Shown piece after piece: positions 6,870 to 27,855 of a stretch of DNA of 64,000 bases. The notes beneath the pieces are model-generated. The model worked only from the letters and a program-made list of their open reading frames with translations. It was not told the origin of the DNA and ran no database searches. The stretch lies in assembly GCA_963771005.1 (NCBI GenBank), contig CAVYRO010000008.1:197029-261028 (forward strand), written 5' to 3'. The stretch's first letter is position 1. Each line of letters begins with the position of its first letter. This stretch comes from an uncultured Bacteroidales bacterium. Its GTDB lineage: Bacteria > Bacteroidota > Bacteroidia > Bacteroidales > GCA-2748055. Both the position numbers and the translations under genes were made by a program.

Positions 6870-6900
6870 TTGGCTATTGTATCTGTCGTTCTCCTAATAT

Positions 6901-7410: not shown

Positions 7411-7417
7411 CTGGCCG

Positions 7418-8054: not shown

Positions 8055-8119
8055 AAAGCAAAGATAACTGATTTTAAGCAATTGTCAATTTCGTTTATAG
8101 TTTGTTGGTTCTCGGCTGG

Positions 8120-10514: not shown

Positions 10515-10583
10515 AATATTTCTATTTATAGAGTTCTTTTTGTCTAGTTAATATATTTAAAAAGAAACTTGTATTGACACCAG

Positions 10584-11351
10584 TTATTCTTTATTTTTAA
10601 CATAAATATGCTTAATATGTGTATTTTCTACTTCTTTCTCTTCTATATCAAAGTGAACATTCAAAGATTTAATTAGTGGAGTAAGTTTCGGGAAACCATA
10701 ATTACGAGAATCAAAATCAGGTTTCTTTTTCATAAGTAGCCCTCCAACTTCAGCAAGAAATGCCCATCCATTATCATCAGCCAAATCACCAATTGTCCCT
10801 TTTAATAACTTAATTAATTCATCATCAATTGTATCAATATCTATAGTTGTTGTTGTAACAGGAATACGAGATTGATTAGTTACAATACTTTCTGTTGTTT
10901 TTATTTCCGATATTCCAATAATTTCAATATAAATAAATTTGTCACATGCAACTATAAAAGGATTTGGAGTCTTTTTTTCACCAATCCCAACAACTAACAT
11001 TCCAGACTCCCTTAATCTAATTGCCAATCTTGTAAAATCACTATCGCTTGAAACAAGACAAAATCCGTCAACTTTCTGGCTATGCAATATATCCATTGCA
11101 TCAATAATCATAGCTGAATCTGTTGCGTTTTTTCCTGTTGTATAACTGTATTGTTGAATTGGTGTTATTGCGTGTTCTAATAAAGCTGGCTTCCATCCTG
11201 ATACAGTTGGTTTTGTCCAGTCTCCATAGATTCTCTTAATAGTTGGAATTCCAAGTTTTGCAATTTCATCTAGCATCCCCTTAATGTTTGAATAAGGAAT
11301 ATTATCTGCATCAATTAATACTGCTAATTTTAAATCATCTTTTTGTCTCAT
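10584..11351 (-). CDS. NYN-domain (PIN-like RNase) protein with C-terminal OST-HTH/LOTUS domain
   Basis: 255-aa ORF. LAVLIDADNIP...GKNATDSAMIIDAMDIL...FCLVSSDSDFTRLAIRLRESG is typical of the NYN fold. The C-terminal GWAFLAEVGGLLMKKKPDFDSRNYGFPKLTPLIKSL is LOTUS-like. Confidence 0.75.
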   Translation of the reverse strand: MRQKDDLKLAVLIDADNIPYSNIKGMLDEIAKLGIPTIKRIYGDWTKPTVSGWKPALLEHAITPIQQYSYTTGKNATDSAMIIDAMDILHSQKVDGFCLVSSDSDFTRLAIRLRESGMLVVGIGEKKTPNPFIVACDKFIYIEIIGISEIKTTESIVTNQSRIPVTTTTIDIDTIDDELIKLLKGTIGDLADDNGWAFLAEVGGLLMKKKPDFDSRNYGFPKLTPLIKSLNVHFDIEEKEVENTHIKHIYVKNKE

Positions 11352-11370
11352 GGTTGTACTTTTTTAAATT

Positions 11371-11506
11371 ACCGCCAACGGTTGGTGTATGAGGCGTTGG
11401 GCATTTCAACGCACTTCACTGTCAAACCGCTGATATGTTTATAAAATGTACTCATGTTTCAATTAACCACATGCTGCCCAATGACTTATACACATTGTTG
11501 TGCGGT
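11371..11506 (-). repeat. attC-like recombination site 8
   Basis: ACCGCCAAC (11371-11379), GGTTG, GTGTATGAGGCGTTGGGCA ... TGCCCAATGACTTATACAC, ATT, GTTGTGCGGT (11497-11506). Confidence 0.8.
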
Positions 11507-11631
11507 CGTACTTTTTCTTCAGTCAGGGTGGGCAAAGGCATACTCTTTGACAAGTTTTGGTCGTGGGGTTGACTTTTTGCGCGACTTGGCAATGTGTATG
11601 GCTTTAGCGAGGGCATTTCTATTTCTCCGAT

Positions 11632-13479
11632 TTATGGATTTAAAATGTCATATAAAATATCACCGGCTTTCGTGAGATTTCTCAACAAGTCATCTATTGT
11701 TATTTCTGCAACTCCTCTGTCGTTATAGGTCACATTTAGTCCAATAATTGCTTTATCAATTGTAAAAGGACTTTCCTTTATTTTAGTTAATCTATCACCA
11801 CCAGGATATGCTTCAGGGGGTACTCCTGTCGGTTTGGCAAACTGAACTCCTTCTCGTGTCCAGTCTTTAAAATGTATTGTAACCGGACTTTTTGTATTTG
11901 TGCCGTTATTAGTTACAGAGTAAATATTCTTTGCAATTTCGATTTTTGCTTGGTAATTAATCGCAGGTAAATTCAAATCAAACATGCTTCCTTTTGCAAC
12001 AAGTAATGTCCTCTCAGGTAGCGTAATATTTTTTAAGGCATCAATAACTTTAAAAGCAGCTAGAAGGTCATTTTTGTATATCGGACTTTCCAGGTCGTTG
12101 TGCGACATCGGATTAAAAAGAATGCTTTTGTATAAATACAAACTTTCAATTAAAATCATAGGCGGTTCAATTCCTAAATCGTCATAATATCGTTTAAGGT
12201 TGTCTATCAGCGTTTCAAGATTTGGTGGTTTTACTAAGCCTTTTAACCCTTCACCGACAGAATAGGTTGCCAACAATTTTTCGTGAAATAAATTTTCACA
12301 TTCTTTTCGCAAAGCATTAGCGCAAGCAGGGAAATCATAAACATTAAAGTAGGCTTTTGCTTTTTCAAAATTGGTCTTGTCTTGATGAATAATTTCGGGT
12401 CCTTCAGTTCCTTTGTAAAACTCAACAAATTTCCAGTCCCCAAGATTTAACTTCGCAACTTCATACCAGTGGCGGTCATAGGTTGTAATAAAAACCTGAA
12501 AATCTTTAAATACTTTATCTGCTTCGGCAACTTCTTTTTCTTGAAGCAATTGTAATAATTTCAACCTGTTTTCATTATCCAGACCGATTAAAATATCATC
12601 TAAGAATAAAGGTTTTATCTTCCTTGAAAAAGGACTTTGTTTAACAATCGCACCTAAGAAAATACTTATGGCAATAGCTGAAAGCTTTGCTTCATTTAAA
12701 ACAAACTGAGGATTATGGGCATCTAAATAAATTCCAGCACTTTCAACCAAAAGCAAAATCTTACTTTCAGTGATATTACCCCATTGATTTGTTGTTATTG
12801 TTCTACGTTGGAACTCAATTTTCAAGTCAGGGATTAGTTTTTCTAAAATTTTATTTACTGTTGGGGCTAAATAGTCAGGATTCCCGGTTAAAAATAATTT
12901 GTTAATCGCATTGTTAAATGCAATCGCTTTTTGTTCTACCGAAGCTTTCTTTTGCCGGGCAAAATAAAATTCATGACCACTGCCGAAAGGCTTATTACTT
13001 TCTTCTGCTACATCTGTCCAAAGTTTACCTAATTCAATGCCACCTGTTATAGTTTGAGATTTGAAATGTTTTAGTACACCATTTATTACAAGGTCGAAAA
13101 CATTGATTTGTTTACCAATTTTAATGTTGTGAACTGACAGCAAGTGTTTGTAGGTTATAAAACTCTTTAATCGGTTTGCATCTGTAATTGCTGGTGTTGC
13201 AGTAGTTTTTGTTGTATCGTTTAAGGTAAATTTTGCACCACCTTCAAATTCTACTTCTATTGAACAATCAGTTCCACCGTCATTAAGAAATAAGTTACGA
13301 AGAGCTGACATATCTATGTTTTCAACACTGGATTGAAAGAAGTCTTTTAGTGCATAATAAAACGAGCTTTTACCGCTTCCGTTTTCTCCATACATGAAAA
13401 CATTTTTACCACCAATTGGAATTTTCTCTTCCTTGGTAAATGCTTTATATTTATCAATGGTTACATTTTGGATTCTCAT
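11632..13479 (-). CDS. ABC/SMC-type (RecF-like) ATPase
   Basis: 615-aa intact ORF with Walker A GENGSGKSS near the N-terminus and Walker B/D-loop LFLDDILIGLD. Its ATG overlaps the methyltransferase stop (ATGA at 13476-13479). Confidence 0.7.
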   Translation of the reverse strand: MRIQNVTIDKYKAFTKEEKIPIGGKNVFMYGENGSGKSSFYYALKDFFQSSVENIDMSALRNLFLNDGGTDCSIEVEFEGGAKFTLNDTTKTTATPAITDANRLKSFITYKHLLSVHNIKIGKQINVFDLVINGVLKHFKSQTITGGIELGKLWTDVAEESNKPFGSGHEFYFARQKKASVEQKAIAFNNAINKLFLTGNPDYLAPTVNKILEKLIPDLKIEFQRRTITTNQWGNITESKILLLVESAGIYLDAHNPQFVLNEAKLSAIAISIFLGAIVKQSPFSRKIKPLFLDDILIGLDNENRLKLLQLLQEKEVAEADKVFKDFQVFITTYDRHWYEVAKLNLGDWKFVEFYKGTEGPEIIHQDKTNFEKAKAYFNVYDFPACANALRKECENLFHEKLLATYSVGEGLKGLVKPPNLETLIDNLKRYYDDLGIEPPMILIESLYLYKSILFNPMSHNDLESPIYKNDLLAAFKVIDALKNITLPERTLLVAKGSMFDLNLPAINYQAKIEIAKNIYSVTNNGTNTKSPVTIHFKDWTREGVQFAKPTGVPPEAYPGGDRLTKIKESPFTIDKAIIGLNVTYNDRGVAEITIDDLLRNLTKAGDILYDILNP

Positions 13480-16400
13480 TTTAAAGCTTCTTTTATTATT
13501 CTCACTTCTTCAATGCTGTCCAGAGTCTCAATGGCATATTTTACCGGGTGGTTGTCGTCATACAAACGTTCAAACTCACTTTGTACAATTGCCAATTTTT
13601 CTTCCGGACTCATGGTCTCATTTATTGGTTTTAGATTACCTAAGTGTTTGATTATTTCTTTATCAGCTGATTTGAGTTCTTTGGGGAAGTAAAGTTCATA
13701 AACTATTTCATTTATCAATTCAAAGAAAAACTGTTCATACAATTCATTTAATGAAAAGGAAAAAATGCAATACTGCCTAATGACTATTATTAAATTAGCA
13801 ATATCAGAATCATATGAAGGCAACGGAAAATTCCGAATATCAGTCACAAGAATTTTAGGAAAATCACCTTTTGTTGCTTTAGGTGAAGCATTAAAATGAT
13901 AGAAGGTTGCAATAGTTGAATTTAGAATTCCCCATAACCATTCAAGTGAATAACTGGTATTTTCCTTATTTATAATCGAAATAATTTGTGGGTCATTAAC
14001 CAGATGTTCTTCAACAATGCAGGCAATTATTGTTGGATTAGTAATTTCTCTAACTAAAACTCTCTTCCTATTAAAGTACCTTGGCTCGATATAGCCAGCA
14101 AGGTGTTTGCCATACCATATGTATGAATCAGCTTTCGAGTAACTGTATTTATTCAGGTTCCTACCTTGAATTTCTTGTTCATATTCTGATGATATTTTTT
14201 CAGTACTATGCCATTCTCTATTGTCAACAATAGAATTTCCATTTTCTTTTCCATAGGTTTTTATTAAATCACTCCTTCTGTATGGAATATAACCTTGCGA
14301 TATGTCAAACAAATTTTCAAGATTATTTCTTTTTTCTGTTATCCTCTTTATAGTTTCGACAGTAGTTGGGCTTAATTTAAATGCTAATCCCCAATTTTTA
14401 TTGAAAGATGTGATTTCTTCTTTTGAAATTTCTAATCTTGGTCTTGAAATTAATTCTATGAAACTATTTGCCTCATTGGTATTTCGATATCCAATACTAA
14501 TTGTTTCTTTAGTTAAACCTTTAGACCAATTGAAAATTGTATTTCTTACAACTGCACTCTCAAAAAACTTAAAGTTTGTACAATCCAAAATTTCATTTAC
14601 TGTCCACCTATCTAAAATCTTATTTCTATAATTTTCAGCAAATACATTAAACAATATGGAATTAGGAATTATAAAGGTATTGCATCCATTATTGTGTAAA
14701 AGCTTGAAAGAAAGTTCTATGAAAAAATAGTATATCTCATAATCAGGGACTTTTTCAAATTGCTTCAAAACTATCTTTCTGTAATCATCTTTTATTGATA
14801 CACCATATGGTGGATTTCCAATCACCACATCAAAACCGCCCTTTTCGTGCCAAACCTCTGAGAAATAGAGTTTGAAATCAAAGTCGATTTTATATCCTGC
14901 AAATTCTTCAATCTCATCTAATAGTTGTCTGATTTTCTTGTTTATCTGTAGGCGAAGTTCTTTCTTTTTAGTTTCATTTGTTTCATCATAAAAAAGTGGT
15001 TTTAATCTTTCTATTTCTTTTAGAAGTTCATCATTTGGTAAAACATCTGTTGGCTTACCAATTAATGAGTTGCCGCAAACAATTTTATAATCCAGATTTG
15101 GCAGGGTTTCAATGGGGTCAAGGTCATCTTCGTCGACCACAAGCGAAAGCCACAAACGCAAACGGGCAATATCAATTGCTGAAGCATCAATATCTACTCC
15201 GTAAATGCTTTCTTGAATAATATGGCGTTTTAATCGATAGATATAACGACTTTCGTTGATACTCTCGTGAAACTGAAAACCAAAGCCATCTAATTTTTTA
15301 TTCAAATAAGCATTGCTTAAATGCGGCATTAATACTAATTGTGCATTTACTAATTCATGTAACAAACCCACCGGAAAAGCCCCCGAGCCAATAGCAGGGT
15401 CGCAAATTCGTATTTCTGTTAATTTCCGGTCAATCAACTCTGCATTATTTCTAATGCTTTCAGGAATTTGGTATTTATAATCTTTGGTTTCTGTTCCTTT
15501 GTTTGCAACACGCTGGTCGTTTTCCAACGCAAAGTTTCCTTCTCGAATATAAACTTCTATGTCGTCTTTCTTAACTTTTTCTTCCAGTGCATTGTCCAAA
15601 TAATGTATCAGGCTTTCCTGGCACATATAATGCACAATTTCACGCGGAGTATAAAACGCGCCATTACCTTTTCGATCGTTTATCATCGAAAAGATTTTCA
15701 AAAACTTTTCCCAACATTTCCGGGTCAACAGCTACTTCTTTGTCCAGCGGCTCGTCTTCTTTTATGGTAAAGTTGTAGCGGTCAAAAACATCCAAAACTC
15801 CGGTTCCCTTATCTCCGGCTTTGTTTTTTTCTTCATTACTGAAATAGATTTTCGGGAATGGTAATGTTGGCAGTTTCCCAATCGTATTCTGCTTCAAACA
15901 ATCCTCCATTTAAAAATGGAATCCGGCAATCAAATCGTTTGTAATAAGAGTTTTCATTGTTCCGTTCTTTTGCCAATGCTTCGTAAAACAAGGGTTGCAG
16001 AATAATCTTTAAAGTAATTTTGGTTTTTTCTTTGAGCTTCTTCAAACAATTCCTGAATAAAACGTTTTTTTCCTTTTCCCCAATGTTCGTTTTGTGGTAC
16101 ACCCAGCCAGCCTTTTTTCTGCAAAAAATAGAGAAATACAATTTGCCCGAGTAGTTTTTTTGTAAATCGGGTGTTGTCAATATTCGCCTTTTCTAATTCG
16201 GATTGAATGTGCGTGTCGTTTTCAAAATGTTCGTACAGTTTAACATACAAATCTTTGTATTGACCGAAAAATTCATCGGTGACTTTTTCAATGCTAAAAG
16301 CATTTTCAATTTCTTCAATGGTAGGATTATTGCATATGTTTTGAAGTAATGGCAGAATTTGGTTTTTGCGTGTATGTGCTTTTTCATATTCACCCACCAG

Positions 16401-16867
16401 AAAGGAATACCTTTTTGCAGGTGTAAATTCTTTTCGGGTTTTTACCTTTTGTTTTTCTTCATCTAAGATACGACTGATGTTCGAGTTTAATGAACGAAAA
16501 ACGCCAGTCGGCTCCATCATCTTCTTTTGAATAAAAAGCAACAAGAGCATAATCTTTTTCAAATTTGCTCAGGTGTTTAATCACAAAATTTCGTAATGCG
16601 GTTCTGGCTCGTTCCAGTTTCGCACCGCTTTTCACTTCAACAATTAAAACGTCCAGCGCTTCGCCTTCCGGGTCAATGTACTTGCCAATTCGTTTGTAGG
16701 TGTTGATGTGTTCTTTGTGGTCGTCCCAAATATATTGTCCGCTGTAGACATTGCTTTTGGGTTCAATATCATTCAGCAAGTTTTTGACAAACAGTGTAAA
16801 CCGGCTTTCATCAAACCTTTACTTGAATGTTTCTTCGATTAAGTGATATGGCAGTATTTTTATCCAT
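13476..16867 (-). CDS. Large Eco57I/type IIG-like N6-adenine DNA methyltransferase; N-terminal third fragmented by frameshifts
   Basis: The intact 750-aa C-terminal ORF carries CDPAIGSGAFP (SAM motif I) and VVIGNPPYG (motif IV). The fragments 15664-15909, 15836-16180, 15954-16562 and 16459-16779 read as one continuous N-terminal region (e.g. QIVFLYFLQKKGWLG). The proposed ATG at 16867-16865 (MDKNTAISL...) comes from manual translation. Confidence 0.7.
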
Positions 16868-19800
16868 AATTATTTAATAAGGTATCCTGATAAAATGACT
16901 TCACGTTTTTGAAAAGCTTTTTTCGTGCTGTACTGTTTTCAATGGCAATTGCTCGAATGTGTTTTCTTAAAATATTGAGTGCTTCCAATGGGTCGATGGT
17001 TTTTTCCAATTCATTTTTAATGTCCCGGGCAGTGCGTTTTGCCATTGTACCCAGCTACTAAAATATTTTTCACACTTTCTAATAAATTCATCGTCCGAAT
17101 CGGTAAAGCTTTTGACAGTTTTTAAAGATTTATCTTTTAAGCGTTTTTCGATGTATTTTACATTTGAACGCCCGCCGGCGAGTTTTTTGCGGTTCATCGC
17201 CAATGGTGGTGTCCAACTCAAAGCGAGCCCTGTTTGTCTGTAAAAGATGGTAATAATCGTCAGGGATTTTTGCCCTTTTGGTTAAAGGTTTACATTCCAG
17301 ATTATAAACTGCATCAAAAAAAGTAATTTCATCTGAGCTGCCCTTTTTGTTGAGATAGAATTTTTTGAGTTTACCAATCCTGAAAAAAGTAAGTAGTTGA
17401 TTGGCTTCAATTTTTGACTTTTATAAATCCTGAACGGGCTTTTTTAGGTAGGTTTTTTATTTTTTGAAATAAATCAGGATTTTCATCTCTTATTTTTCGC
17501 ATCATTTCCAGATACTTCAATTCCGAATCGCCTTCTTCATCTTCTCCGGTGTAGGCCTTTTTGTTATTCAAGGTGTTAAACAATTCCTGACTTCCAATTT
17601 CTTCGCCATCGGTCAGGTATTTGGCATCTTCACCCAAAATATCATGAAACATCTGGATTTTATTGGTGATGTTCATTTCCAATCCAAGATGTGCATCCGA
17701 TTGTGTTGTTGGGAAGAAATTAAAAATATGCACATTTGTCAAATGCTGACTTCCCAAACGATTCACACGTCCGGCTCTTTGTAGCACTCTGGTTGGATTC
17801 CAGGGCAAATCGTAATTGATAACCACATTTGACCGATGAAGGTTAATTCCTTCAGCCAAAACATCGGTGGCAATCAGAATTCTCAAATCATTAACTTGTT
17901 CTTTTGGTTTTTCTATTTGGGTCGTAATTGGCTTGAATAATATCGCGTGAAACAGTGTGATTTGATGTTAGTTTCAAATCTGAGTGACGTCCGCCTTTAC
18001 TGGAATAAAACATTACCTATTTAGGAAATTCGTTTAGCAAAGCTTCATAAATGTAATCACCTGTTTCTTTTGATTCTGTGAAAATTACAAGCTTATTGTT
18101 CTATTCAAGTGATTTGGTTTTCTTTGATTCAAAAATGAACTGTTCAAGTTTCGGGTCTGAGTCAACAGTTCTGCCATAATTCTTTTACTTGTTTAAAACT
18201 TTTAAATCAAATTCAAGTTTTGTTTTAAAGTCTTTTTTAAAGTCTTTTGAATCATATTTGTTGGCTTTGTCTTCTTCAACCAATTCATCGAGTTTATCAA
18301 TGTCATCATTTCTCAAGCAGGTCGTAAACATCTACTTTTTTGCTGATATAAACTGTTCCAGAATCGAACATTGAGATAAAGTTTTCATAAGAAAGAATAA
18401 AACGGTCAACACTTTGCCGAAAAGCGTAAAAACTACTTTCCAAACGTTTAACAAGAATTCCTTTCATAAATCCTCCAACATTTCGCTGTTGTTGTTTTTC
18501 AAACTCACTTAGCTGCTTTATTTCCAATGTAAAAAAGCAACGGCGTGTATCTGGAATAGGTAAAGTGTGTAGGAGTTTTATCGTTTGCTTTAAAAGTGTT
18601 TTCAAATTCACCTTCGTATTCATATACAATTTTCTGCGGGTCTTTCACATTCAGGAAAAACCAAACCTTGTTTAAGAATATCGCCTTTAAAATAAGTAAC
18701 AACATCTGACCGTGTTCTTCGAACCATGACATATCTTAAAATGTTGTTTTTAATTTCGTTTGAAACTTCTTTAATGAGAATTTTATAAGCAGGGTCATCT
18801 TTTTCAACTTTCTTTAGCTTGGTTCTTAATGAATTAAAAAACTTTTCAAGATTTGGCACTCCGGGAATAGTTGACTGTTTTGGAGCCTGAAATAATTTAA
18901 GTTGTGCAAAAATATCATCAACCGTATTGTTTAAAGGAGTTGCAGTAACAAGAATTACTTTTTTGCCCCGGCAAATATCCAATAAGGTTGGCATATGATT
19001 GTGTGTTTTCATTTCTGAAACGGTGTGCTTCATCCACAACAATATAATCGTATCGTTCTAATCCTTTTTTAATGATGTGTTCCAGTTTACCAAGCGATTC
19101 AACTTCAAAACTTCGGATACCAAAATCAAATAAAGAATCTTTCCAGTAATCCTTTCAACACAGGAGGACAAACAACTAAAGTTCTGCCCTGAATTTGTTG
19201 AAGAAGTAAAGCTGTAATAAATGTTTTACCAAGACCAACAACATCAGCAAGAAAAACGCCATTGTATGCTTCCAGAATTTTCTTTGCCTGAATTGCAGCC
19301 TGACTTTGATATTTTAATTTCATAAATCCATCTGGCAGAAATGGGTCAAACTGGTCTTCCAGATTTATGTCTTCTTCCAAGTATTCATAAATTAATTTCA
19401 GATAAAATTCGTATGGAGTAATTTGATCATTTAACCATGTTTTTGTTGTAATTGTGTCAACAAAATCATCTGAAATATCAACAGATTCATTCCAAAGCTC
19501 ATTAAACTGGTTTTCTGCAAATTTAACATCTAATGTTTTCCTCAACTCAACATTAAATTCTCGGTTTGCCACAAAGCCAGATTCAGAAAAATTACTTGAA
19601 CCAGTAATTACAAAACCATAATCTCTGTCTTCAGGATGGAATCTGCCTATGTAAACTTTTGCATGAATATTTTTTGATGGATAGGCTCTTATTTCTAATT
19701 TTTTTCCATTTCCTCCAATTGCTTTATCATCTGCTGGATTTTTACATTCTTGTTGTAAAAATTCAATAAATTTCCGAATTCCAATTTCTAAGCTTGTTAT

Positions 19801-20143
19801 CATTTTCATCACTTGTTTCAATTTCAGTTTTCAGGTTTGCCTGAAATTGTTTTTTTGTTCTTTGATGCGATTCAAAATCAATCATTCCGATTTGCTCGTG
19901 ATATTGCAAAATATCATAAGAATCTCTGTCAACGCTTAAACCAACAAGTATTCTGACTTTTTCAACAGGTTCAAGTGATTCATACAATTGATAAAAACCA
20001 CTTGCCCTGAAATAACCAACAAGTACATCAAAAAGTTGAGTGTCTTTTAGTGTTGCTTTAAATCGATTTAATAAACTACTTCCATTTTCATTTGTGAAAA
20101 ATGTCAAGTCAGTTTGGTCAATATTATTTGTCTTCTTATCCAT
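16860..20143 (-). CDS. Phospholipase-D-like nuclease domain fused to SNF2-family helicase; heavily fragmented (8 or more frame breaks)
   Basis: 19763-20143 and 19126-19821 give the PLD region ([18 protein letters not shown]) and helicase motif I ([10 protein letters not shown]). 18620-19042 gives [11 protein letters not shown]. 17407-17886 gives helicase-C motifs ([31 protein letters not shown]). Short fragments continue to a stop at 16860. Confidence 0.7.
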
Positions 20144-20156
20144 TAAATTCAGTTAT

Positions 20157-20438
20157 TTACTCGATTGATTTAATTGTTTCTTGTAAACCAATCTTCAAAT
20201 ATTCCAACTCGCCCAGTTCTGTTAAAATCATTGATTTGATAAATTCAATTTGAATTTCCTTTTCCGGTTTGTCAAGTGTATCGGATAGGATTGGAATCAT
20301 TTCGGTCGTTGCACGTCTTTCATTGCGTTCAATCTTGCTTAACAATGAAGTATCAATGTCAAGTGCAGCAGCAACTTTTCTAAGGGGTAATTCTTTGTCT
20401 TCTCTTGCTTTCCGTAAGTATTCACCAAATGATTTCAT
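20157..20438 (-). CDS. XRE-family helix-turn-helix transcriptional regulator
   Basis: 93-aa ORF. FGEYLRKAREDKELPLRKVAAALDIDTSLLSKIERNERR is a canonical HTH_3-type segment. It is the first gene of the 9.1-kb cassette. Confidence 0.8.
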   Translation of the reverse strand: MKSFGEYLRKAREDKELPLRKVAAALDIDTSLLSKIERNERRATTEMIPILSDTLDKPEKEIQIEFIKSMILTELGELEYLKIGLQETIKSIE

Positions 20439-20603
20439 CTTGTCAATTTATTTTAGACGATTCTGTCCAAAAATACATCTTTTTTATTTTGTTTTTCCAT
20501 CAGCGGGTCGGAAAAGATTAAGCTCTTTTGGTTTTTTTAGGGTTGGCATTTTGTGTCGGCAAAAAACCAAATGTGCTTAATGTGCGTGGGGCTTTTTCAG
20601 TAT

Positions 20604-20741
20604 GCCGCACAACGTTTGACAATATGGCAAGTGGCGGTTTGCGGAGCGCGTCTGTATCCACCGTTGAAAAAGTTTGAAGCGGGCTACAATGCCCGAATTT
20701 ACTACTATCCCCGCCATTTGCTATATTGTGTGTTAGGGGGC
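20604..20741 (-). repeat. attC-like recombination site 9
   Basis: GCCGCACAAC (20604-20613), GTTTG, ACAATATGGCAAGTGGCGG ... CCGCCATTTGCTATATTGT, GT, GTTAGGGGGC (20732-20741). Confidence 0.8.
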
Positions 20742-20748
20742 GTTAATA

Positions 20749-21250
20749 TTATATTGTTGTCATTCTAAAATCTTTCCATCTTATGATTTCGGAATATGGA
20801 AATTCATTCTTTATGTGTTTTTTATATTTTGTCCTTGCTAACAGAAAAATTATTTGATTATCATCAATTTCAATATTTCTCTTGGCAATCTTATTTCTCA
20901 ATTTTGGAATATTAGAAATTAAATAATTCAAATTATTTTCATTTACTCCATTTTTTGAATTTCTATCTCTGATTTTTAATGGCTCATCGATTATATCAAT
21001 TAAGAAAATCCCCTTATCTCTGAAGTTCTATTAAAAACTTTTCATATTCAACCACATCTCTTGGTACGGTGTCAAAATAGTGATAAAAAATCGTTGCTGG
21101 TAAGCTGGTGTTTTCTTCCCTAATTCTGTTTTGAATAGTATCAGGTAAATAAAAATACTTTTTACCAGAAAAAGGAGGTGCTTCTCCAATTAGTAAAGTC
21201 TTAATTTTTAATGGTCTATATTTCTCGGAAATTTTAAAATAGTTTATCAT
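20749..21250 (-). CDS. Hypothetical protein, probably one gene split by a frameshift (track ORFs 21014-21250 and 20749-20931)
   Basis: The two short ORFs are adjacent and co-directional. The open frame of the second extends upstream almost to the stop of the first. No confident motif. Confidence 0.35.
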
Positions 21251-21681
21251 TTCACTATATCATATTGTTCGTAAAGTCCAATATTATCATACAAAGACAA
21301 TTTACCATTATTTTCAATTAAATAATAATCATTGTATCCATCCCCCATTAAGGCTTTGATAATAAATGTTTGTCTCCCAGATTTTGTCTTGGTATCTAAT
21401 TCCCACTTTTTACCAATCTTTAACTTCTCAATCTCCATCTCATTTATGTAGTAAACACCATTTTTTTTAAAAATTACAACCAAAACACCATCACCCTGAC
21501 TCCATTTGCCGAGAATATCAACAGATTTATTCTCTGCTAAAAATTTAATCATTAGTTTATCAGTTTTTGAATTATCAGTACTTGTATTTTTTTTTGTATC
21601 ATCATAATATGGAGCTGTCATTATAATTTCTAAATCAGGGTCAAAATGAGATGTAGCCCAAGCTCCTGAACCAACTTTCAT
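21247..21681 (-). CDS. Hypothetical protein
   Basis: 144-aa ORF with a 4-nt stop/start overlap with the next gene. Confidence 0.45.
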   Translation of the reverse strand: MKVGSGAWATSHFDPDLEIIMTAPYYDDTKKNTSTDNSKTDKLMIKFLAENKSVDILGKWSQGDGVLVVIFKKNGVYYINEMEIEKLKIGKKWELDTKTKSGRQTFIIKALMGDGYNDYYLIENNGKLSLYDNIGLYEQYDIVK

Positions 21682-21720
21682 TCCTGGTAGATAGTAGCAT
21701 ATAAATATCCTTTCATAATC

Positions 21721-22002
21721 CTAATTTAGTTCATTTTTTAGTTTTTTTGCCAATTTTTCAATTGAAGTTTTTTTAAACTCTTTATTTAATCGAACATCTA
21801 TACTTGCTTTAATTGAGGGAATAGATTCTTGTTTTATAATGGAATACTCATCAAAGATTTCATCATAATCAGTTTTATTAATATAATTATCAGATTGTTT
21901 ATCATCTCGATTTAGAACAAACTTCATCATTCCGAAAATGAAAATAACAACAACAATCCCTATTATAATTTCGAATTTTTTATCATTACTTTTTTTGTCC
22001 AT
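21721..22002 (-). CDS. Small membrane-anchored protein
   Basis: 93-aa ORF with a single N-terminal hydrophobic helix (FEIIIGIVVVIFIFGMMKFV). Confidence 0.45.
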   Translation of the reverse strand: MDKKSNDKKFEIIIGIVVVIFIFGMMKFVLNRDDKQSDNYINKTDYDEIFDEYSIIKQESIPSIKASIDVRLNKEFKKTSIEKLAKKLKNELN

Positions 22003-22055
22003 TTTTAATCTTATTTATCAGTTATATTGTCAACTGTCGGTTTGTTTGGTTTAAT

Positions 22056-22190
22056 GCCCCCTAACGGTGGCAATATGCAAAGTTTGGGATTACGGAGCGA
22101 TTCACTATCAAGCTACACGGCACTTGATGCGAGCCACAACCCTTGAATAACCTATTAAACCCCAATTTTGTATATTGCATGTTGTGTGCC
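22056..22190 (-). repeat. attC-like recombination site 10
   Basis: GCCCCCTAAC (22056-22065), GGTG, GCAATATGCAAAGTTTGGG ... CCCCAATTTTGTATATTGC, AT, GTTGTGTGCC (22181-22190). Confidence 0.8.
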
Positions 22191-22198
22191 GTAATTTT

Positions 22199-22534
22199 TT
22201 ATTTTTCTTTATTATTCATCAAATCTTTAGTATCGTTTATATATCTACGCTTCACATAAATCAATATTGACGGTCGAGTAGTACTCTCAGATATAATGCT
22301 GTTGTCATATCTAACTATTTCAACCTTATCAATCCAATCAGGATTAATCATTTTTAAAGTCAATGAATCAATTAGTAATTTATCCTTTTTTAAAACTAAT
22401 ACAAATTGGGCATTTTTATAATTAATATCCTTGCTTATGAAGGTTGAGCTACTTTTTGTTGTATCATTTTGAGCATGCAAGTTACTGCTGAAAAATATCA
22501 ACGAAGCAAATAAAAGTCTATATATTTTAATCAT
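22199..22534 (-). CDS. Small exported protein
   Basis: 111-aa ORF with signal-like N-terminus MIKIYRLLFASLIFFSSNLHAQ. Confidence 0.5.
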   Translation of the reverse strand: MIKIYRLLFASLIFFSSNLHAQNDTTKSSSTFISKDINYKNAQFVLVLKKDKLLIDSLTLKMINPDWIDKVEIVRYDNSIISESTTRPSILIYVKRRYINDTKDLMNNKEK

Positions 22535-22540
22535 GACAAA

Positions 22541-22939
22541 TCATTTTAATAAAAAATCAAATGTATCCTTTGTTACACTCTTAGTATACTGTCGGCTTTT
22601 GCCTTCTTTATCAATAAATCCAACAACTACAAAATCCTTAAATATCAAAAATCTAAAATCTTTACCAATTATTATCATATCAGATGGAGCATATGAAGCT
22701 GGTGAACTTTGCCAATCATCAGAGTTGTCAGTAAACCATTTTTTTAATTGGCTGTATTTGATCGAATTACAATCAATAATCCGATCTGTCGAATCACTTT
22801 TTAAAAAATATCCATCAGAATTAAATTTAAGTGTCAATCGCTGGTTGTTTTTAATTAATTCTGCAGTTTCAATCTTTACATTACATGAATTTAAAACAAT
22901 CAAAGAAATAAAACATATTATTATAGTAAATTGCTTCAT
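22541..22939 (-). CDS. Small lipoprotein
   Basis: Start taken at ATG 22939-22937 (MKQFTIIICFISLIVLNSCN, with a lipobox). The longer track ORF start lies inside the attC-like site. Confidence 0.5.
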   Translation of the reverse strand: MKQFTIIICFISLIVLNSCNVKIETAELIKNNQRLTLKFNSDGYFLKSDSTDRIIDCNSIKYSQLKKWFTDNSDDWQSSPASYAPSDMIIIGKDFRFLIFKDFVVVGFIDKEGKSRQYTKSVTKDTFDFLLK

Positions 22940-22957
22940 AAGTGCGGTTTTTATTAT

Positions 22958-23093
22958 GGCACACAACGTTTGATGGTATGGTGTCGTGCGGGATTACGAA
23001 GCGATTTCCTATCAGTTTACACCGACTTTTTTTACGAGCCACAAACGCTCGAAAACCTCTGAAACCCGCATGCACTATACCATGTGTTGGCGT
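22958..23093 (-). repeat. attC-like recombination site 11
   Basis: GGCACACAAC (22958-22967), GTTTG, ATGGTATGGTGTCGTGCGGG ... CCCGCATGCACTATACCAT, GT, GTTGGCGT (23086-23093). Confidence 0.8.
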
Positions 23094-23205
23094 TTCGTGC
23101 TTTGTTCCTGTCAGTCCGTGGGTTGGCAAGGCAAGCTCTTTGGCTGGTTTTGGAAGTGCATTGGCATATGAGACCAGACAATGTGCTTGACTTTTGTTGG
23201 ATGAA

Positions 23206-23575
23206 TCAATTAATATACATGAAAGATTGAGGAGGTGTCGCATTATAGTGTTCCTTTATACATAAAGCTTCATCATAAACCCTAGTCTCTTTAATTTTAA
23301 TGGCGTATCCTTTTTCTCTGCTTTTAAAATAGTTAAAGAAATACTTCTTATCGATTCCTGCAAATTCCTTAGTGGCATTCCATAAATCTGTTGGTTCTCC
23401 ACTTAATATTGATTCTATATCAAATTCTCCAATTACCTTCTGAACCTGAAGAAGAATATACAACCACTGTTTTAATATTGGGATTTTTAAATAATGACCT
23501 TCTGAATTCATATTTTTTTATCCCTGCGAATATTTTATCTGCAAATTCTGGTTTAATCGATAATAATACTTTCAT
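23206..23575 (-). CDS. ASCH-domain (PUA-like) protein, one frameshift
   Basis: Manual translation from ATG 23575-23573 gives MKVLLSIKPEFADKIFAGIKKYEFRRSLFKNPNIKTVVVYSSS. The track ORF then continues ...VQKVIGEFDIESILSGEPTDLW...GYAIKIKETRVYDE...PPQSFMY. The pattern is typical of small ASCH proteins. Confidence 0.6.
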
Positions 23576-23601
23576 CACTCTTTGTCTCCGTTATTATAGT
23601 T

Positions 23602-25067
23602 TTAAACTGTTCCTTCGTAATTTTCACGAATCCTCTTGGTGCTGATTCTGTAATCTTTAATAATCCCTAATTTAATTAATTGTTCAAGATTAATTCTTTT
23701 CGGAAATGAATAATTATAGAAAAAATTAACAATAAACGGTCTATTACGGGGATTAAAATTCCACCATTTTTTAAGCTCATCATTTGTAAAAATACTTCTC
23801 TTCCTACATTTTAAAATAAAATCGTTTTCGTCTTTTATGTCTGTGATTATGTTTTCAACAGTACCAATCGTCGAAATTACACTTTTATATTTACCACCTG
23901 TACGATAAAATATAATCAAATCTCCGGTTTTTAAGCCCTTTTCCCACGAGCGTGAAATGTATGCCTTCCTGATTGCATTTCTATGAAGCTCATTTTCGAC
24001 AAAATCCATTGGAGATTCTGTTGTTAAAATGGAGTCTGGTAATAATTCTGTATGATAATCGGGCCAAATTGGGCATAGGAAAATATTAGTATTACAAGAG
24101 ATATAAGGATATGTTAATTTTGGGTCAATTATATTGAATGCAGGTGAAAAATCCCTTGTGAGGACAATTTCTTCGCCACAACTTGATTTTTTCAGTTCCA
24201 TGTTCGGCAAACCCCCAAGTTTTAAGCATTTCAATTAATCTCTTCTGCTCTTCACGTTTATCAAATATAGTTACATAAATTTCATTGACTTTATTTACAA
24301 CTGCATTATCAAATATTATTTTTAAAAACCTTTCGCCTAATCGAACCCCATTACTCTCAACTTTAAATGTTCCAATTTTAAGTCTCTTTTTGGGTGTAAA
24401 GACAGGTGTAATATCCGAATAATTTTCATCTGTATTTTCAACTTTCACATATAGAAAAGAAAGAACATTTTCTTGGTTTTCTGTAATATATGCGGTTTCT
24501 TCAGATTTTTTATTAAACCAATTATCGAAACCAGGGTAATCCTCTCTGAAACTATCAAAAAAAGTATCTTTTAAGTTTACATTGCCAAATAATTTTTTTG
24601 ATACGCTCAGTACTTTATAATCAACTAAATGAGGATTTTCAGAAACAACTTTTTCTAAAAATGAATTGATGTTAAATACTTTCTCTGAAATGCCAAGCCT
24701 TTCGGCTTTTTTATGTATTTTTTTATCTTCTGTTACAAGTATGTCAGTTCGTCCACAAAATACTTCATTAAGAAGTTGTGTGTCATTTTTATCATTTTCA
24801 TTGTTATCCATCTCCTCCGATACATTTTTAACAGAATCGTCAAGTGGAGCAGTGGTTTGTAATTCGTTATAGCTTTTGAGTTTAATCTTTAAAGTCTCCA
24901 CGGCAGGTTTGTTGGAATTTTTATTTATTTCTTGATATAGTAATCGGATGTATACATTTTGTGTACTTAGCCTTATCCAACCATTTAAAAAGTATACCAA
25001 TATCTCGATTAACAACAGTACTTGTCTCACGGTGAATTATAATATTTGTATCAAGAAGTGCTTTCAT
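23602..25067 (-). CDS. Multidomain protein: N-terminal PIN-like segment, GNAT-like acetyltransferase segment, C-terminal PUA/ASCH-like segment; at least 2 frameshifts
   Basis: Manual translation from ATG 25067-25065 gives MKALLDTNIIIHRE... and later ILVTEDKKIHKKAERLG (PIN-like). The middle region has LKIGTFKV...GVRLGERFLKIIFDNAV...EIYVTIF (GNAT-like). The C-terminal ORF 23602-24234 has KTGDLIIFYRTGG...ISTIGTVENI (PUA-like). All domain calls come from motif resemblance only. Confidence 0.45.
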
Positions 25068-25256
25068 AGATTACGCTTAAATAATTTGTAAGGTATAAAA
25101 TCTTTGTTCAGCGCGTAAGGAAAAAATAGCTCTTTTACCAACAGAAGAAATTGCAAGTGGGTCAGGGTTGGTAAATGTGCTATTTGTGCGCAGGGTTTTC
25201 ATAGCTTTTATTTTATCGAATTACGAAATTTTCCTTCGGAGCCGCTGACAGCATGA

Positions 25257-25386
25257 ACGCTAACGGTCACCGGTAAGTTTCGTTGCCAGGGTTGTTGTGC
25301 TTGTTAAAATCATTAATTATCGTTAATCCGAATTTACGAATTCGGAGCGAACCTGGCAATGAAATTTACCGGATGTTGTGTGGCGT
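25257..25386 (-). repeat. attC-like recombination site 12 (first attC after the attI-like site)
   Basis: ACGCTAAC (25257-25264), GGTCA, CCGGTAAGTTTCGTTGCCAGG ... CCTGGCAATGAAATTTACCGG, AT, GTTGTGTGGCGT (25375-25386). Confidence 0.8.
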
Positions 25387-25393
25387 GCTATTT

Positions 25394-25687
25394 TTAAAAT
25401 ATCCTTTTTATGTTTTTCCGGCTAATATGGAGATAAACAATGGATACTTTAAAATCTACGATATTGTAAAAAATGGTGGTTTGCTTACTTAGAACAGCTT
25501 TTCGGAGGTGGGGATTATAGGTCGAGACAGGAAACATATAAGGATTCTGAATAATCAGTCCAAGCTGTTTATTTAATTTGTGCTTAAAACGATCAATCTC
25601 CTTCTGGGTCGATCGACTTGATAAATAATCTAGAATTTCTTCCAGATTTTTCAGGGATTCATCTGACCAATGAAGTTTATAATCCAT
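25394..25687 (-). CDS. RelE/ParE-family type II toxin
   Basis: 97-aa ORF whose start overlaps the end of a small upstream antitoxin-like ORF. The sequence style (MDYKLHWSDESLKNLEEILDYL...) matches plasmid-stabilisation toxins of Bacteroidota. Confidence 0.65.
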   Translation of the reverse strand: MDYKLHWSDESLKNLEEILDYLSSRSTQKEIDRFKHKLNKQLGLIIQNPYMFPVSTYNPHLRKAVLSKQTTIFYNIVDFKVSIVYLHISRKNIKRIF

Positions 25688-25904
25688 ATTTTTTCTTCAC
25701 TACTTCATGAGGTGTGGTTCTCCCTTGTTTAATGTCCTGTATCCCTCTTTCTATACTTGCCCGCTCATCATCGGAGAGATCATCCCACCAATCATGGCCC
25801 GAAGACCAGGAATCTTTAATAAGTTTTAAATACTCAATAGTCTCTTTATCTTCCAGTTTGGCAAGCCATTCTATCAACTCTAATTTTATTGTTTCCTGTT
25901 CCAT
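25677..25904 (-). CDS. Putative antitoxin of the RelE/ParE pair
   Basis: Start taken at ATG 25904-25902 (MEQETIKLELIEWLAKLEDKETIEYLKLIK...). About 75 aa, overlapping the toxin start by 11 nt. The longer track ORF begins inside the attI-like region. Confidence 0.55.
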   Translation of the reverse strand: MEQETIKLELIEWLAKLEDKETIEYLKLIKDSWSSGHDWWDDLSDDERASIERGIQDIKQGRTTPHEVVKKKYGL

Positions 25905-25966
25905 CACCTTTTTTTTCAAAGTTATGAAATTTTTGGTACTTTTTAATCGATAGGTGCTCTTTGCAT

Positions 25967-26030
25967 GACACACAACGTTTTTATATACGCAATATTACGA
26001 TATATAGATGTATATCGTAATATTGCGTAT
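25967..26030 (-). other. attI-like primary recombination site
   Basis: ACACACAAC (25967-25975), GTTTT, then a perfect 21-bp inverted repeat TATACGCAATATTACGATATA (25983-26003) / TATATCGTAATATTGCGTATA (26010-26030) around TAGATG. It has only one AAC/GTT box, no second box on the recombinase side, and is the last site before the recombinase gene. Confidence 0.6.
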
Positions 26031-26265
26031 AATATCTCCTGTCTGAAACTTTTAAAATTTTTCTGAACTACACGATGATCCTGTTTCCCTTTCCTTGTCC
26101 ACCCCCCCAGTGCTTTTCCTGTTTTTTGATTTATATGTCACTGTAAAACACTATCTTAAGGAAACCCGGTCGAATAAATCCTAAATGCTTCTTTCATTAC
26201 AGGTCCACTTAAAGCTAAAGGAAAAATTCCGAATTTCCAACCTTTGGCCGGAATTTCCTCCAACC

Positions 26266-27855
26266 TCACCCGATATCCAACTCATCAAAAGGATTTTTTT
26301 CATCCGTGTTTTTACGGCTGGTTACATGGGTGTATATTTCGGTGGTCTTGATGCTGCTGTGTCCCAACTTTTCCTGCAATGCCCTTATGTCCTTCGTCAG
26401 TTCGTAATCGTGCGTCGCAAAAGTATGCCTTACTTTATGAGGAGTTATGTCCTTATCGACGCCGGCCCGCACGGCTGCACGCTTCACAACTTTCTCAACA
26501 CTCCCTCGTGAATATTTCCCGCCGTTCATTCCTTCAAAAAGATATACCGAAGGCTTGTACCGTTCCATATATTTCTCGTAAAAAGGATCAAATTTCGCCG
26601 GAATGGGCACATAACGCTCCTTCCTTCCCTTGCCCATTATCAACAATTGCCGCCTTTCCCAGTCAAAATGGTCAAGTTTGCAGTCCAGGACTTCGGCTAA
26701 TCTCATCCCGGTAGCATATAATATTATGATCAGGGTCTTATGCTTGATGTTTCGGGTAACCTCAATCATCTTCTTTATCTCATCGGTATTCAGGAACTTC
26801 GGTAAAGTTTTTCCCAATTTGGGCCGGTCAATGAAATAAAATTTTCTTTCCCCGCCTTTGACTTTCTCATAATAAAACTTAATGGCATTGATGGCCAGAT
26901 TCAGGGTTGATTCAGAAACATTCCTCTCCACATTTAGATACATCAGAAATGACCTTATCTCATCTTCCGTGATCTTATCAATCTCTACTGTGTCGAAAAA
27001 ATTAATAAACTCCGTAAACATGGAAGTATAATTCCTGCAGGTATTCTTACTGTACCTTAACTCTTTCAGCTTGAAGATATACGTATCCGGACAGGGCCGG
27101 AAATTTTCAATCTCATCCCTTCTCTTTCTTTTTTTAACGGGTCCCCCCTTTACATCCTCTATGCAGGAAAAGGATTTTCCTAAAGCCGTGATAATGTTCT
27201 GCAATTGCCTGAGAAACAGTTCAGAAAAAGGGATTGAAAAGCATTTGTTCATTTTGTCATACTTCCAGTATGGGAATTCTTTGATTTTCTTGATTAAATC
27301 TTTGTTGTACTTACCGATAATCTTTAATCTGCCCGATGCAGTCCTGACGATCCGGATATCGGTATCAAATGCCGGGGACGAAATTTCATCTTCCTTCATT
27401 AATTCCGCATCCTTTAACCTGGTTCCAAAGTAGGATCGGATTTTATCAAGATTAGTTCCGAAATTTGTCACCTGCCAAAGCCTGTTCGTCCAATCCCAGT
27501 TGCTGTATCTAATTAATTCCTTGATGAACCGGAGGTCAGCTTCATTTTTCTCCATTTTAACCAGGATCTTTTTTTCAAAAACCTGCATAAGAACTGGCTC
27601 TGAACCTTCCGGATCCCCCTCCTTTTCCTTAGGTTTATCTGTAGAGGAGGCACTTTTTTCCTGATATTCAAGATTTGGAAACATCCTCTTTATCTCACTG
27701 AAGGCTTCACGCGTATACGGAATATGCCACGATCTATACGTCTTGCTCCAGGTACAACCTTTGATCGTCTTTATTTTTTCTTTTGTGGAAGTATCATAGG
27801 GGAATTTCAGAAGTATACGATACTCTCCGTGATGCAGGATTTTTTCCAGTTCCAT
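26266..27855 (-). CDS. Tyrosine site-specific recombinase (XerC/D-like catalytic domain) with a 240-aa N-terminal extension of three related modules
   Basis: 529-aa intact ORF. Catalytic motifs are ATGMRLAEV (Arg), GKGRKER (Lys), HKVRHTFAT (HxxR) and LGHSSIKTTEIYTHV (His, Tyr). The SAM-like core-binding segment is YSKNTCRNYTSMFTEFINFF...STLNLAINAIKFYY. Only 58 aa lie between GKGRKER and HKVRH by my count. Confidence 0.9.
   Translation of the reverse strand: MELEKILHHGEYRILLKFPYDTSTKEKIKTIKGCTWSKTYRSWHIPYTREAFSEIKRMFPNLEYQEKSASSTDKPKEKEGDPEGSEPVLMQVFEKKILVKMEKNEADLRFIKELIRYSNWDWTNRLWQVTNFGTNLDKIRSYFGTRLKDAELMKEDEISSPAFDTDIRIVRTASGRLKIIGKYNKDLIKKIKEFPYWKYDKMNKCFSIPFSELFLRQLQNIITALGKSFSCIEDVKGGPVKKRKRRDEIENFRPCPDTYIFKLKELRYSKNTCRNYTSMFTEFINFFDTVEIDKITEDEIRSFLMYLNVERNVSESTLNLAINAIKFYYEKVKGGERKFYFIDRPKLGKTLPKFLNTDEIKKMIEVTRNIKHKTLIIILYATGMRLAEVLDCKLDHFDWERRQLLIMGKGRKERYVPIPAKFDPFYEKYMERYKPSVYLFEGMNGGKYSRGSVEKVVKRAAVRAGVDKDITPHKVRHTFATHDYELTKDIRALQEKLGHSSIKTTEIYTHVTSRKNTDEKNPFDELDIG

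Follow-up and report, generated by a model that had tools for sequence, protein, structure and literature searches.

In a 64,000-nucleotide stretch of DNA from an uncultured Bacteroidales bacterium (contig CAVYRO010000008.1, positions 197,029 to 261,028; hereinafter, the window), a gene for a tyrosine recombinase that lacks the insertion characteristic of the integron integrases (IntI) heads a long array of co-oriented gene cassettes separated by imperfect palindromes that resemble attC sites. The product of the gene is probably the site-specific recombinase that serves a chromosomal, sedentary cassette array of integron-like organization; if so, the system represents a new class of integrons in which the recombinase is not IntI. 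All components of the architectural definition of an integron, namely, a recombinase gene, an attI site and an array of cassettes each of which ends in a site, are present in the window as well as in relatives. The suggestion of a novel integron recombinase, made in an earlier note on this DNA, is well supported by comparative analysis, because an IntI insertion was looked for and is absent, and the homologs of the recombinase are systematically linked to such arrays, these being the two points on which the note considered its proposal open to refutation.

Recombinase gene and its domains

The gene and its domains are located as follows.

26266..27855, minus strand: tyrosine recombinase gene, 529 amino acids, with three HARP-like modules, a core-binding domain and a catalytic domain, without the IntI insertion
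27676..27855, minus strand: HARP-like module 1, residues 1-60, beta-beta-alpha-beta-beta-alpha (profile comparison and AlphaFold2)
27400..27594, minus strand: HARP-like module 2, residues 88-152 (profile comparison and AlphaFold2)
27157..27360, minus strand: HARP-like module 3, residues 166-233 (profile comparison and AlphaFold2; aligns to 4o66)
26854..27081, minus strand: core-binding (SAM-like) domain, residues 259-334 (Pfam)
26320..26799, minus strand: catalytic domain, residues 353-512, with Xer-like K-to-H spacing (Pfam and alignments)

The Phage_integrase domain of the window protein (residues 353-512, E = 5.8e-37 in Pfam) contains the full catalytic set of the tyrosine recombinases (R385, K412, H473, R476, H499 and Y508), in agreement with the earlier note, which had described the catalytic domain as complete; the Pfam match to the SAM-like core-binding domain covers residues 266-334. 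In 119 full-length homologs, five of these six residues are invariant or nearly so, and the position of H473 is occupied by H in 97, by K in 18 and by R in 3. The spacing between GKGRKER and HKVRH, which the same note had given as 58 amino acids and likened to that of XerC/D, is exactly 58 amino acids in the window protein, and the K-to-H distance is 60-62 amino acids throughout the family (119 homologs). The alignment with the IntI of V. cholerae (2a3v) splits into two parts, with residues 267-428 of the query matching 17-179 of the chain and residues 451-522 matching 245-316, so that 22 residues of the window protein face 65 of the chain and about 43 amino acids of the IntI-specific insertion are missing. 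Furthermore, in a multiple alignment of Vibrio IntIA, IntI1, E. coli XerC and XerD, two XerA and ten members of the present family, the insertion, with its ALQEKYP/ALERKYP stretch, is found only in the two IntI. The 2a3v match and the multiple alignment thus bear out the claim that the IntI hallmark insertion is lacking, and rule out a classical IntI with an overlooked insertion.

Comparison with curated protein family models places the window protein close to, but outside of, the established groups. The best model, NF040815 (XerA/integron integrase), was just missed, with 219.1 bits against a cut-off of 220. The matches to both IntI models were split into two stretches and scored well below the respective thresholds (180.2 bits against 265 for TIGR02249 and 120.6 bits against 435 for NF011946), and the XerC and XerD equivalog models, which the earlier note had proposed to run, gave 186 bits against 335.15 and 172.8 bits against 329.6, both far under the cut-offs. 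For the family as a whole, the best E-values were 1.5e-71 for XerA, 2.2e-68 for IntI, 7.5e-59 for XerD and 1.6e-56 for XerC, which puts IntI second, in a slight departure from the score order of the window protein itself, for which the top match in the PDB is P. abyssi XerA. In an unrooted neighbor-joining tree of 16 sequences and 276 columns, in which only two IntI were sampled, the recombinase family was split from IntI, Xer and XerA with a 100% bootstrap support and was not nested within IntI; in the same tree, the two IntI came together at 100% and Xer joined XerA at 96%. Because the family splits off with full bootstrap support, it appears, within this small, unrooted sample, as a lineage apart from IntI and from Xer/XerA, and the window protein is not filed as IntI because the defining insertion is absent. 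In public annotation, members of the family bear generic names only ('tyrosine-type recombinase/integrase', 'site-specific integrase' or 'XerD').

The region upstream of the core-binding domain consists of three related modules, as noticed in the earlier note. Comparison of profiles, made of segments cut out of the 119-sequence family alignment, yielded a probability of homology of 93.6% (E = 2e-7) for modules 1 and 2, 97.9% (E = 5e-13) for modules 1 and 3, and 95.5% (E = 1.5e-8) for modules 2 and 3. In the AlphaFold2 model of residues 1-255, which was based on a 65-sequence alignment (pLDDT 87.6) and realizes the structure prediction suggested in that note, a beta-beta-alpha-beta-beta-alpha unit occurs three times (residues 2-58, 88-152 and 166-233), with disordered linkers between the units, and a model of a single module has the same fold.

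The HARP domain of SMARCAL1 is a structure-specific DNA-binding domain that binds single-strand/double-strand junctions and forks. In three of the five homologs tested, the HARP domain (PF07443) exceeded the threshold of 25 bits, with scores of 30.7, 26.4 and 25.3; in Pfam searches of 64 family members, HARP was detected in 25 (E ≤ 0.01, best E = 9.5e-8); and when the profile of the family N-terminus was compared to all PDB sequences, the sole significant match was the HARP domain of SMARCAL1 (4o66), at module 3 (E = 9.4e-4). We therefore describe the modules, with moderate confidence, as HARP-like at the level of the family. An exhaustive search with the N-terminus alone retrieved 684 representative proteins (E ≤ 0.001), and most of those listed, judged by length, seem to be fragments or full members of the same recombinase family, so the HARP-like module seems to be largely limited to this family. 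The number of modules varies: a relative from Fulvitalea axinellae, encoded on a megaplasmid and annotated as 'xerA: site-specific tyrosine recombinase/integron integrase', consists of 435 amino acids and has one clear module, the counterpart of module 3.

The attC-like sites, the attI-like site and their linkage to the gene

The cassette array, its 15 attC-like sites, the attI-like site and one duplicated cassette are located as follows.

25974..26031, minus strand: attI-like site, with a perfect 21-nt inverted repeat (25984-26004 / 26011-26031), TAAAAAC and GTT
1..25973, minus strand: cassette array, which runs past the start of the window, with all open reading frames (ORFs) co-oriented with the recombinase gene
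25258..25381, minus strand: attC-like site 1, 124 nt, at the end of the ParE toxin-antitoxin cassette
22961..23092, minus strand: attC-like site, 132 nt
22059..22187, minus strand: attC-like site, 129 nt
20607..20738, minus strand: attC-like site, 132 nt
11373..11503, minus strand: attC-like site, 131 nt
8121..8251, minus strand: attC-like site, 131 nt
7279..7409, minus strand: attC-like site, 131 nt
6904..7029, minus strand: attC-like site, 126 nt, of the duplicated ORF-less cassette, copy 2 (found although outside the model)
6038..6168, minus strand: attC-like site, 131 nt
4881..5013, minus strand: attC-like site, 133 nt
4426..4551, minus strand: attC-like site, 126 nt
2811..2940, minus strand: attC-like site, 130 nt
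2435..2561, minus strand: attC-like site, 127 nt, of the duplicated ORF-less cassette, copy 1
1559..1687, minus strand: attC-like site, 129 nt
834..967, minus strand: attC-like site, 134 nt
2435..2810, minus strand: ORF-less duplicated cassette, copy 1
6904..7278, minus strand: ORF-less duplicated cassette, copy 2

The 15 imperfect palindromes, of 124-134 nt, lie between the genes of the array and share one orientation. Fourteen of them, all but the site at 6904..7029, served to build a covariance model, which then recovered the full set of 15 and found nothing else in the 64 kb, with no match in the 38 kb outside the array. All cassette ORFs and all 15 sites are on the strand of the recombinase gene and 3' of it, as is implied by the statement in the earlier note that the gene is co-oriented with the cassettes. 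Read on the cassette strand, each site opens with YAAC and 2 nt, which are followed by one arm of a long stem, a central region and the other arm, and closes with 5 nt and GTTR. The ends agree with the RYYYAAC...GTTRRRY pattern of attC in that AAC and GTT are invariant (consensus MYAAC-A ... C-GTTRK in 62-65 sites), and several sites have exact core ends, for example, GCCTAAC / GTTAGGC. A search of positions 1-30000 against Rfam gave no match, so the sites, the ORF-less cassette and a ~70-nt element described below do not correspond to any known RNA family.

Covariation was assessed in 67 sites from 22 sources, in an alignment that was fitted to the model, which somewhat favors the structure. 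Bases are paired in 91.9% of the stem cells compared to 63.8% in shuffles, and the covariation score is 0.674, against 0.177 in shuffled alignments (none of the 500 shuffles reached the observed value) and no more than 0.096 with the partners slid. All 14 stem pairs show compensatory changes, that is, structure rather than sequence is conserved, as is the case in attC. The length of the sites is 129-133 nt in 54 of the 67, and the central region holds conserved motifs. The base that follows AAC and the base that precedes GTT form an A.C mismatch on the top strand and a G.T wobble on the bottom strand in 64 of 65 sites, and a second such wobble, inside the stem, is present in 38 of 67. The bottom strand is predicted to be the more stable one in 48 of 64 sites (mean -1.5 kcal/mol, Wilcoxon p = 1e-5), and its predicted folds contain stems of ~19 bp, with no apparent conserved bulged (extrahelical) bases, and an asymmetric internal loop of ~5 x 2 nt beside the AAC/GTT pairing.

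The first cassette of the window begins at the GTT of the attI-like site. The junction motif, TTGCGT[AT]TAT-N6-GTT[AG], is found in 15 further loci, and the window sequence fits it; the motif is preceded by its own inverted copy and, often, also by a further direct copy. Further evidence on this junction comes from a Chitinophagales recombinase (P0029, 41% identical to the window protein), the same protein sequence of which is encoded on four contigs with the same upstream genes. These contigs are identical through ...TTGCGTTTATACAAAT and then continue with different cassettes that, with the exception of one contig, start with GTTATAT... or GTTAGGC...; two of the four have the first cassette in common and diverge from the second cassette on. 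Assemblies tend to break at this location: 43 of the 66 contigs with a complete gene stop less than 1.5 kb downstream, compared to 51 of 80 that have at least 5 kb upstream, and the Thermoflexibacter ruber contig stops right at the attI GTTAGC, which is the effect that a variable or repeat-rich array would have on an assembly. Within the window array, a 376-nt cassette is duplicated; the copies are 93-96% identical, the similarity starts and stops exactly at the GTT of the flanking sites, and the neighbors of the two copies differ, as would be expected if cassettes are exchanged at G|TT in the manner of integrons.

At least nine loci harbor, between the recombinase gene and attI, a gene for a single-stranded DNA-binding protein (SSB; 120 amino acids, PF00436, E = 8e-36), and the last codons of this gene reach into the first of the direct repeats of the attI motif. 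The gene is located as follows in an isolate, and is present also in the loci L008, L015, L027, L031, L039, L043, L053 and L058; the platform of the window itself has no SSB gene between the recombinase gene and attI.

L012, 11663-12025, Thermoflexibacter ruber DSM 9560: SSB gene (PF00436)

The family is large and widespread in Bacteroidota. In a search of 5.8 billion proteins, at least 961 homologs were detected (E ≤ 1e-10); the 120 homologs listed are mostly about 520-590 amino acids long and 37-45% identical over the full length, and belong to Bacteroidota wherever the source is named. A scan for a pattern specific to the N-terminus, with one genome per species, identified at least 164 genomes, nearly all labeled as Bacteroidota, namely, Bacteroidales, Cytophagales, Spirosomataceae, Thermonemataceae, Chitinophaga, Pedobacter, Lentimicrobium and Saprospiraceae; three contigs with the pattern are labeled otherwise, two as Bifidobacteriaceae/Bifidobacterium and one as Roseobacteraceae, and probably represent binning errors. 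Isolates that possess the system are Thermoflexibacter ruber DSM 9560, Arcicella aurantiaca DSM 22214 and Fulvitalea axinellae DSM 100852. There is no family member on 2.9 million viral contigs, and the plasmid collection contained no full-length member, only shorter relatives. The closest match outside Bacteroidota among those listed is a tyrosine recombinase of many Acinetobacter plasmids (for example, NZ_CP104735.1, 1489-2202), which is 44% identical to residues 292-528; one of these proteins is annotated as TnpF.

The survey of homologs for neighboring palindrome arrays, as recommended in the earlier note, revealed a systematic linkage. Across 84 homolog loci, the covariance model yielded 54 matches (E ≤ 0.01), of which 53 are downstream of the recombinase gene and co-oriented with it and one is upstream, in a scan that took in more upstream than downstream sequence; chance adjacency of the recombinase and the array is thereby ruled out. 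Of the 18 loci that extend more than 2.4 kb downstream of the gene, 15 contain site-model matches, and the order and orientation of gene, attI and array repeat in at least 20 loci from several orders of Bacteroidota. The sole upstream match, in the opposite orientation (L057, 1281-1414; 28.9 bits, E = 0.0025), may be due to chance or may be a piece of a second array.

Proposed mechanism, alternatives and implications

We propose that the recombinase would insert and excise cassettes through strand exchange at G|TT, in the manner of integrons, and that at least the attC-like partner would take part in a folded, single-stranded form, with the bottom strand as the most likely one. The bottom strand is favored because, on this strand, the A.C mismatches become G.T wobbles and the folding is slightly better. 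Together with the dedicated SSB of some relatives, the HARP relationship, the fixed length of the sites and their conserved central motifs, these features speak for a folded single-stranded substrate that would be read by additional DNA-binding modules. In the most speculative part of this scheme, the HARP-like modules, the fixed length of the sites and their central motifs would jointly recognize the folded site and choose the strand; a different recognition device is proposed because no conserved bulged bases are apparent, and the enzyme does not have the I2 helix to read such bases. That the HARP-like modules recognize folded hairpin sites is plausible in view of their family-level homology to HARP, a structure-specific DNA-binding domain. 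Taken to its full extent, the proposal is that Bacteroidota possess a widespread integron class of their own, in which folded single-stranded hairpins would be recombined via HARP-type modules fused to an Xer/IntI-like recombinase, without the device of I2 and extrahelical bases, and with an SSB encoded in the platform in some lineages, perhaps having arrived at hairpin recombination by an independent route or representing a missing intermediate in the origin of integrons; we put this forward tentatively, as a scenario that might well hold but for which the chances are slightly short of even.

Several observations weigh against these proposals. The advantage of the bottom strand is small, and the sites were selected with a model that derives from this strand and permits G-U pairs. 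The sites are termed attC-like on account of their architecture; three of the 18 loci that extend more than 2.4 kb past the gene gave no model match at E ≤ 0.01; and one of the four contigs with the same Chitinophagales recombinase (L001) does not begin with GTT after the junction. With respect to the N-terminal modules, Pfam detects no HARP domain in the window protein itself, just a weak match to DUF5710, and the Foldseek search returned nothing significant, with HARP ranking 16 for the three-module model and 8 for the one-module model (E > 0.2). Moreover, the triplication is not essential for heading an array, because the 435-amino acid, one-module relative from Fulvitalea axinellae also heads one, with eight site-model matches, some of them just 67-77 nt long. 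Thus, of the interpretation offered in the earlier note, an array-associated, novel integron recombinase without the IntI insertion is supported, whereas recognition of the folded sites by the triplicated module is only plausible.

One has to consider the possibility that these arrays are a duplex module system of the Xer type, akin to the dif modules of Acinetobacter plasmids and to the integrative mobile elements exploiting Xer (IMEX), in which the long palindromes would serve as ordinary double-stranded sites, the full Holliday-junction pathway would operate and the N-terminal modules would be arm-type or accessory binders of duplex DNA, with the ATAAACGCAA repeats of attI, both direct and inverted, as one possible target. 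The Xer-like catalytic spacing, the top score with the XerA model and the lack of apparent conserved extrahelical bases in the predicted folds are all in line with such a system, and the attI repeats of one conserved motif (in several loci, two direct and one inverted) could be duplex binding sites. Nevertheless, we deem it unlikely. The sequence of the stems varies freely while the pairing is kept, which is the signature of structure-based rather than sequence-based recognition; the sites are 124-134 nt long, in one orientation and with asymmetric spacers of 5 nt and 2 nt, as opposed to alternating 28-bp dif-like cores; the top-strand A.C mismatches are G.T wobbles on the bottom strand, one of them nearly invariant beside AAC/GTT (64 of 65); some of the platforms encode SSB; and the modules are related to HARP.

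The constancy of the order gene-attI-array in at least 20 loci, the location of 53 of 54 site matches downstream, and the breaks of the assemblies directly past the gene leave little room for the view that a different enzyme moves the cassettes, such that the array would be a relic, namely, a cluster formed by attC sites without an integron integrase (CALIN), or depend on a distant true IntI, and the gene would encode merely a neighboring Xer or island integrase. It is true that the rule of IntegronFinder (PF00589 plus intI_Cterm) would not call this gene IntI. However, the cassette variation begins at a precise junction beside the gene, where a conserved attI motif is located; hardly any classical integrons occur in Bacteroidetes (PMC9024848); and in the cases described by Cury et al., there were at most two attC sites, so this explanation is highly improbable. 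We give next to no credence to the remaining one, under which the gene encodes the integrase of an ordinary island, integrative and conjugative element (ICE) or prophage, the low-GC region is the island itself, and the palindromes are repeats similar to repetitive extragenic palindromic (REP) elements or terminators, even if a low-GC block adjoins the integrase and family members are publicly annotated as 'site-specific integrase' or 'XerD'. The repeats keep strictly to one strand and one side with respect to the gene, the duplicated cassette has exact GTT limits, and strains with identical integrases differ by cassette, not by island. A phage or ICE integrase is rejected on the gene content of the array, which includes no conjugation or phage genes, together with the search of 2.9 million viral contigs that revealed no family member.

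If the gene indeed encodes the recombinase of an integron-like array, the implications are considerable. The additional domain has been described as a defining characteristic of IntI (PMC9668308), and the I2 domain is said to have co-evolved with the extrahelical bases of attC (PMC4792948), which poses the stated chicken-and-egg problem of how there could be attC arrays before I2 (PMC4792948, PMC7790495). A large family that lacks I2 and heads attC-like arrays would challenge the I2-based definition of an integron integrase and, as either an intermediate form or a second solution, makes the question of origin testable. In IntegronFinder 2.0, Bacteroidetes are represented only by In0 elements and one complete integron, in Salinibacter (PMC9024848); by standard tools, the phylum is thus nearly integron-free, and hundreds of arrays rich in defense and toxin-antitoxin genes would have been missed or filed as orphan clusters in a phylum that is prominent in the gut and the environment. 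Furthermore, the fusion of a HARP-like domain to a recombinase would represent a novel function for a domain involved in the remodeling of replication forks. The system is open to work in culture because it is present in three isolates.

Array content and comparison with known systems

The GC content is 0.30-0.36 over positions 1-26000, compared to about 0.50 to the right of the recombinase gene, and nearly all sizeable ORFs of the array are on the minus strand. The products of the cassettes include a ParE toxin pair, a HepT toxin, a D12 methyltransferase, NYN-LOTUS and DnaJ-domain proteins, a truncated radical-SAM protein and many proteins without a family. Such contents, with toxins, restriction-modification, other defense functions and numerous unknowns, fit sedentary integrons. 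The largest unit is the following.

11504..20606, minus strand: single 9.1-kb multi-gene cassette, with a helix-turn-helix (HTH) regulator, a fragmented PLD-SNF2-helicase, an Eco57I/MmeI-type methyltransferase and an SMC-like ATPase

This cassette looks like a defense cassette in decay, because the helicase gene is broken into several ORFs. The set of HTH, PLD-SNF2-helicase and MmeI/Eco57I-type methyltransferase genes is found also in a Chitinophagales array (L001, 17826-21629). The HepT-like RNase toxin gene at 7418-7750 overlaps an upstream ORF of 120 amino acids; the two (7418-8081) probably make up a HepT/MntA toxin-antitoxin cassette, which would be the second pair of this kind in the array. 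The duplicated cassette contains no listed ORF of at least 80 amino acids and is GC-richer than its neighbors; it shows no unusual predicted RNA structure (z = +0.92) and no match in Rfam.

Three cassettes share a conserved element of ~70 nt just past the starting GTT (743-812, 20527-20600 and 25121-25190, minus strand). The element contains the motif CGCACATTnAGCACATTTG, with 3 matches against 0.05 expected by chance, and a 20-nt hairpin in two of the copies; conceivably, it may be a cassette-borne promoter or leader. Similar sequences open cassettes in L003 and L061, and an exact search of the fetched loci for the 5' cassette motif gave no match. In another locus (L002, 12125-19510), the 7.4 kb between two attC-like sites accommodate a whole type I restriction-modification system, in which genes for DarT and for a Macro-domain protein are placed between hsdS and hsdR. 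The array on the Fulvitalea axinellae plasmid pFA3 (L085) encodes WP_338395429.1 twice (13600-14031 and 18690-19121), carries two IS3 copies, and has 67-77 nt variants of the sites next to those of 131 nt.

We found no description of a cassette system with a HARP-type recombinase in the literature, most subscription journals being outside the search. Among the known systems, the XerA, XerC and XerD recombinases resemble the window protein in the Xer-like catalytic spacing, with NF040815 as the best model and P. abyssi XerA as the best PDB match, but the window protein has a 250-amino acid N-terminal extension and misses the curated cut-offs. Instead of the single 28-bp dif of the Xer/dif system, there are arrays of 130-nt hairpin-forming sites in one orientation; likewise, pdif modules are flanked by 28-bp sites (two 11-bp arms and a 6-bp spacer) that alternate in orientation, in contrast to the 124-134 nt sites described here, all of which share one orientation. 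IntegronFinder would classify the array as CALIN, provided that its attC model recognizes these sites, since intI_Cterm is lacking in the recombinase next to them; unlike in CALIN, an intact recombinase of a conserved family and an attI-like site always head the array. The HARP domains of SMARCAL1 (PF07443; 4o66) have the module size of ~55 amino acids, the occurrence in tandem copies and sequence matches at the family level in common with the N-terminal modules; they are fused to an SNF2 ATPase rather than to a tyrosine recombinase, and the copy in the window is too diverged for Pfam, with a likeness that is not significant in Foldseek.

The shared orientation of gene and cassettes is not new in itself, being known from the inverted-integrase integrons of Treponema/Spirochaetota and others, in which the gene also is co-oriented with the cassettes and attI is downstream (PMC4889954, PMC9668308); these, however, have a true IntI, with the additional domain and without the HARP-like N-terminus. 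With the classical integrons, such as those of class 1 and the Vibrio superintegron, the arrays described here share a tyrosine recombinase of the Xer/IntI type at one end, an attI junction with crossover, here a proposed one, at G|TT, and co-oriented cassettes that end in imperfect palindromes with AAC/GTT cores, the structure but not the sequence of which is kept. In both cases, the sites are homogeneous within an array, toxin-antitoxin and defense cassettes are present, and the arrays vary between strains. The differences lie in the recombinase, which here lacks the I2-helix insertion, regarded in the literature as both defining and essential, falls under the cut-offs of the curated IntI models and, across the family, carries one to three N-terminal HARP-like modules; in the sites, with their tight length of ~131 nt, conserved central motifs and no apparent conserved extrahelical bases in the predicted folds; in attI, which is a small conserved palindrome, accompanied in some platforms by an SSB gene; and in the host phylum, Bacteroidota, from which almost no integrons have been reported.

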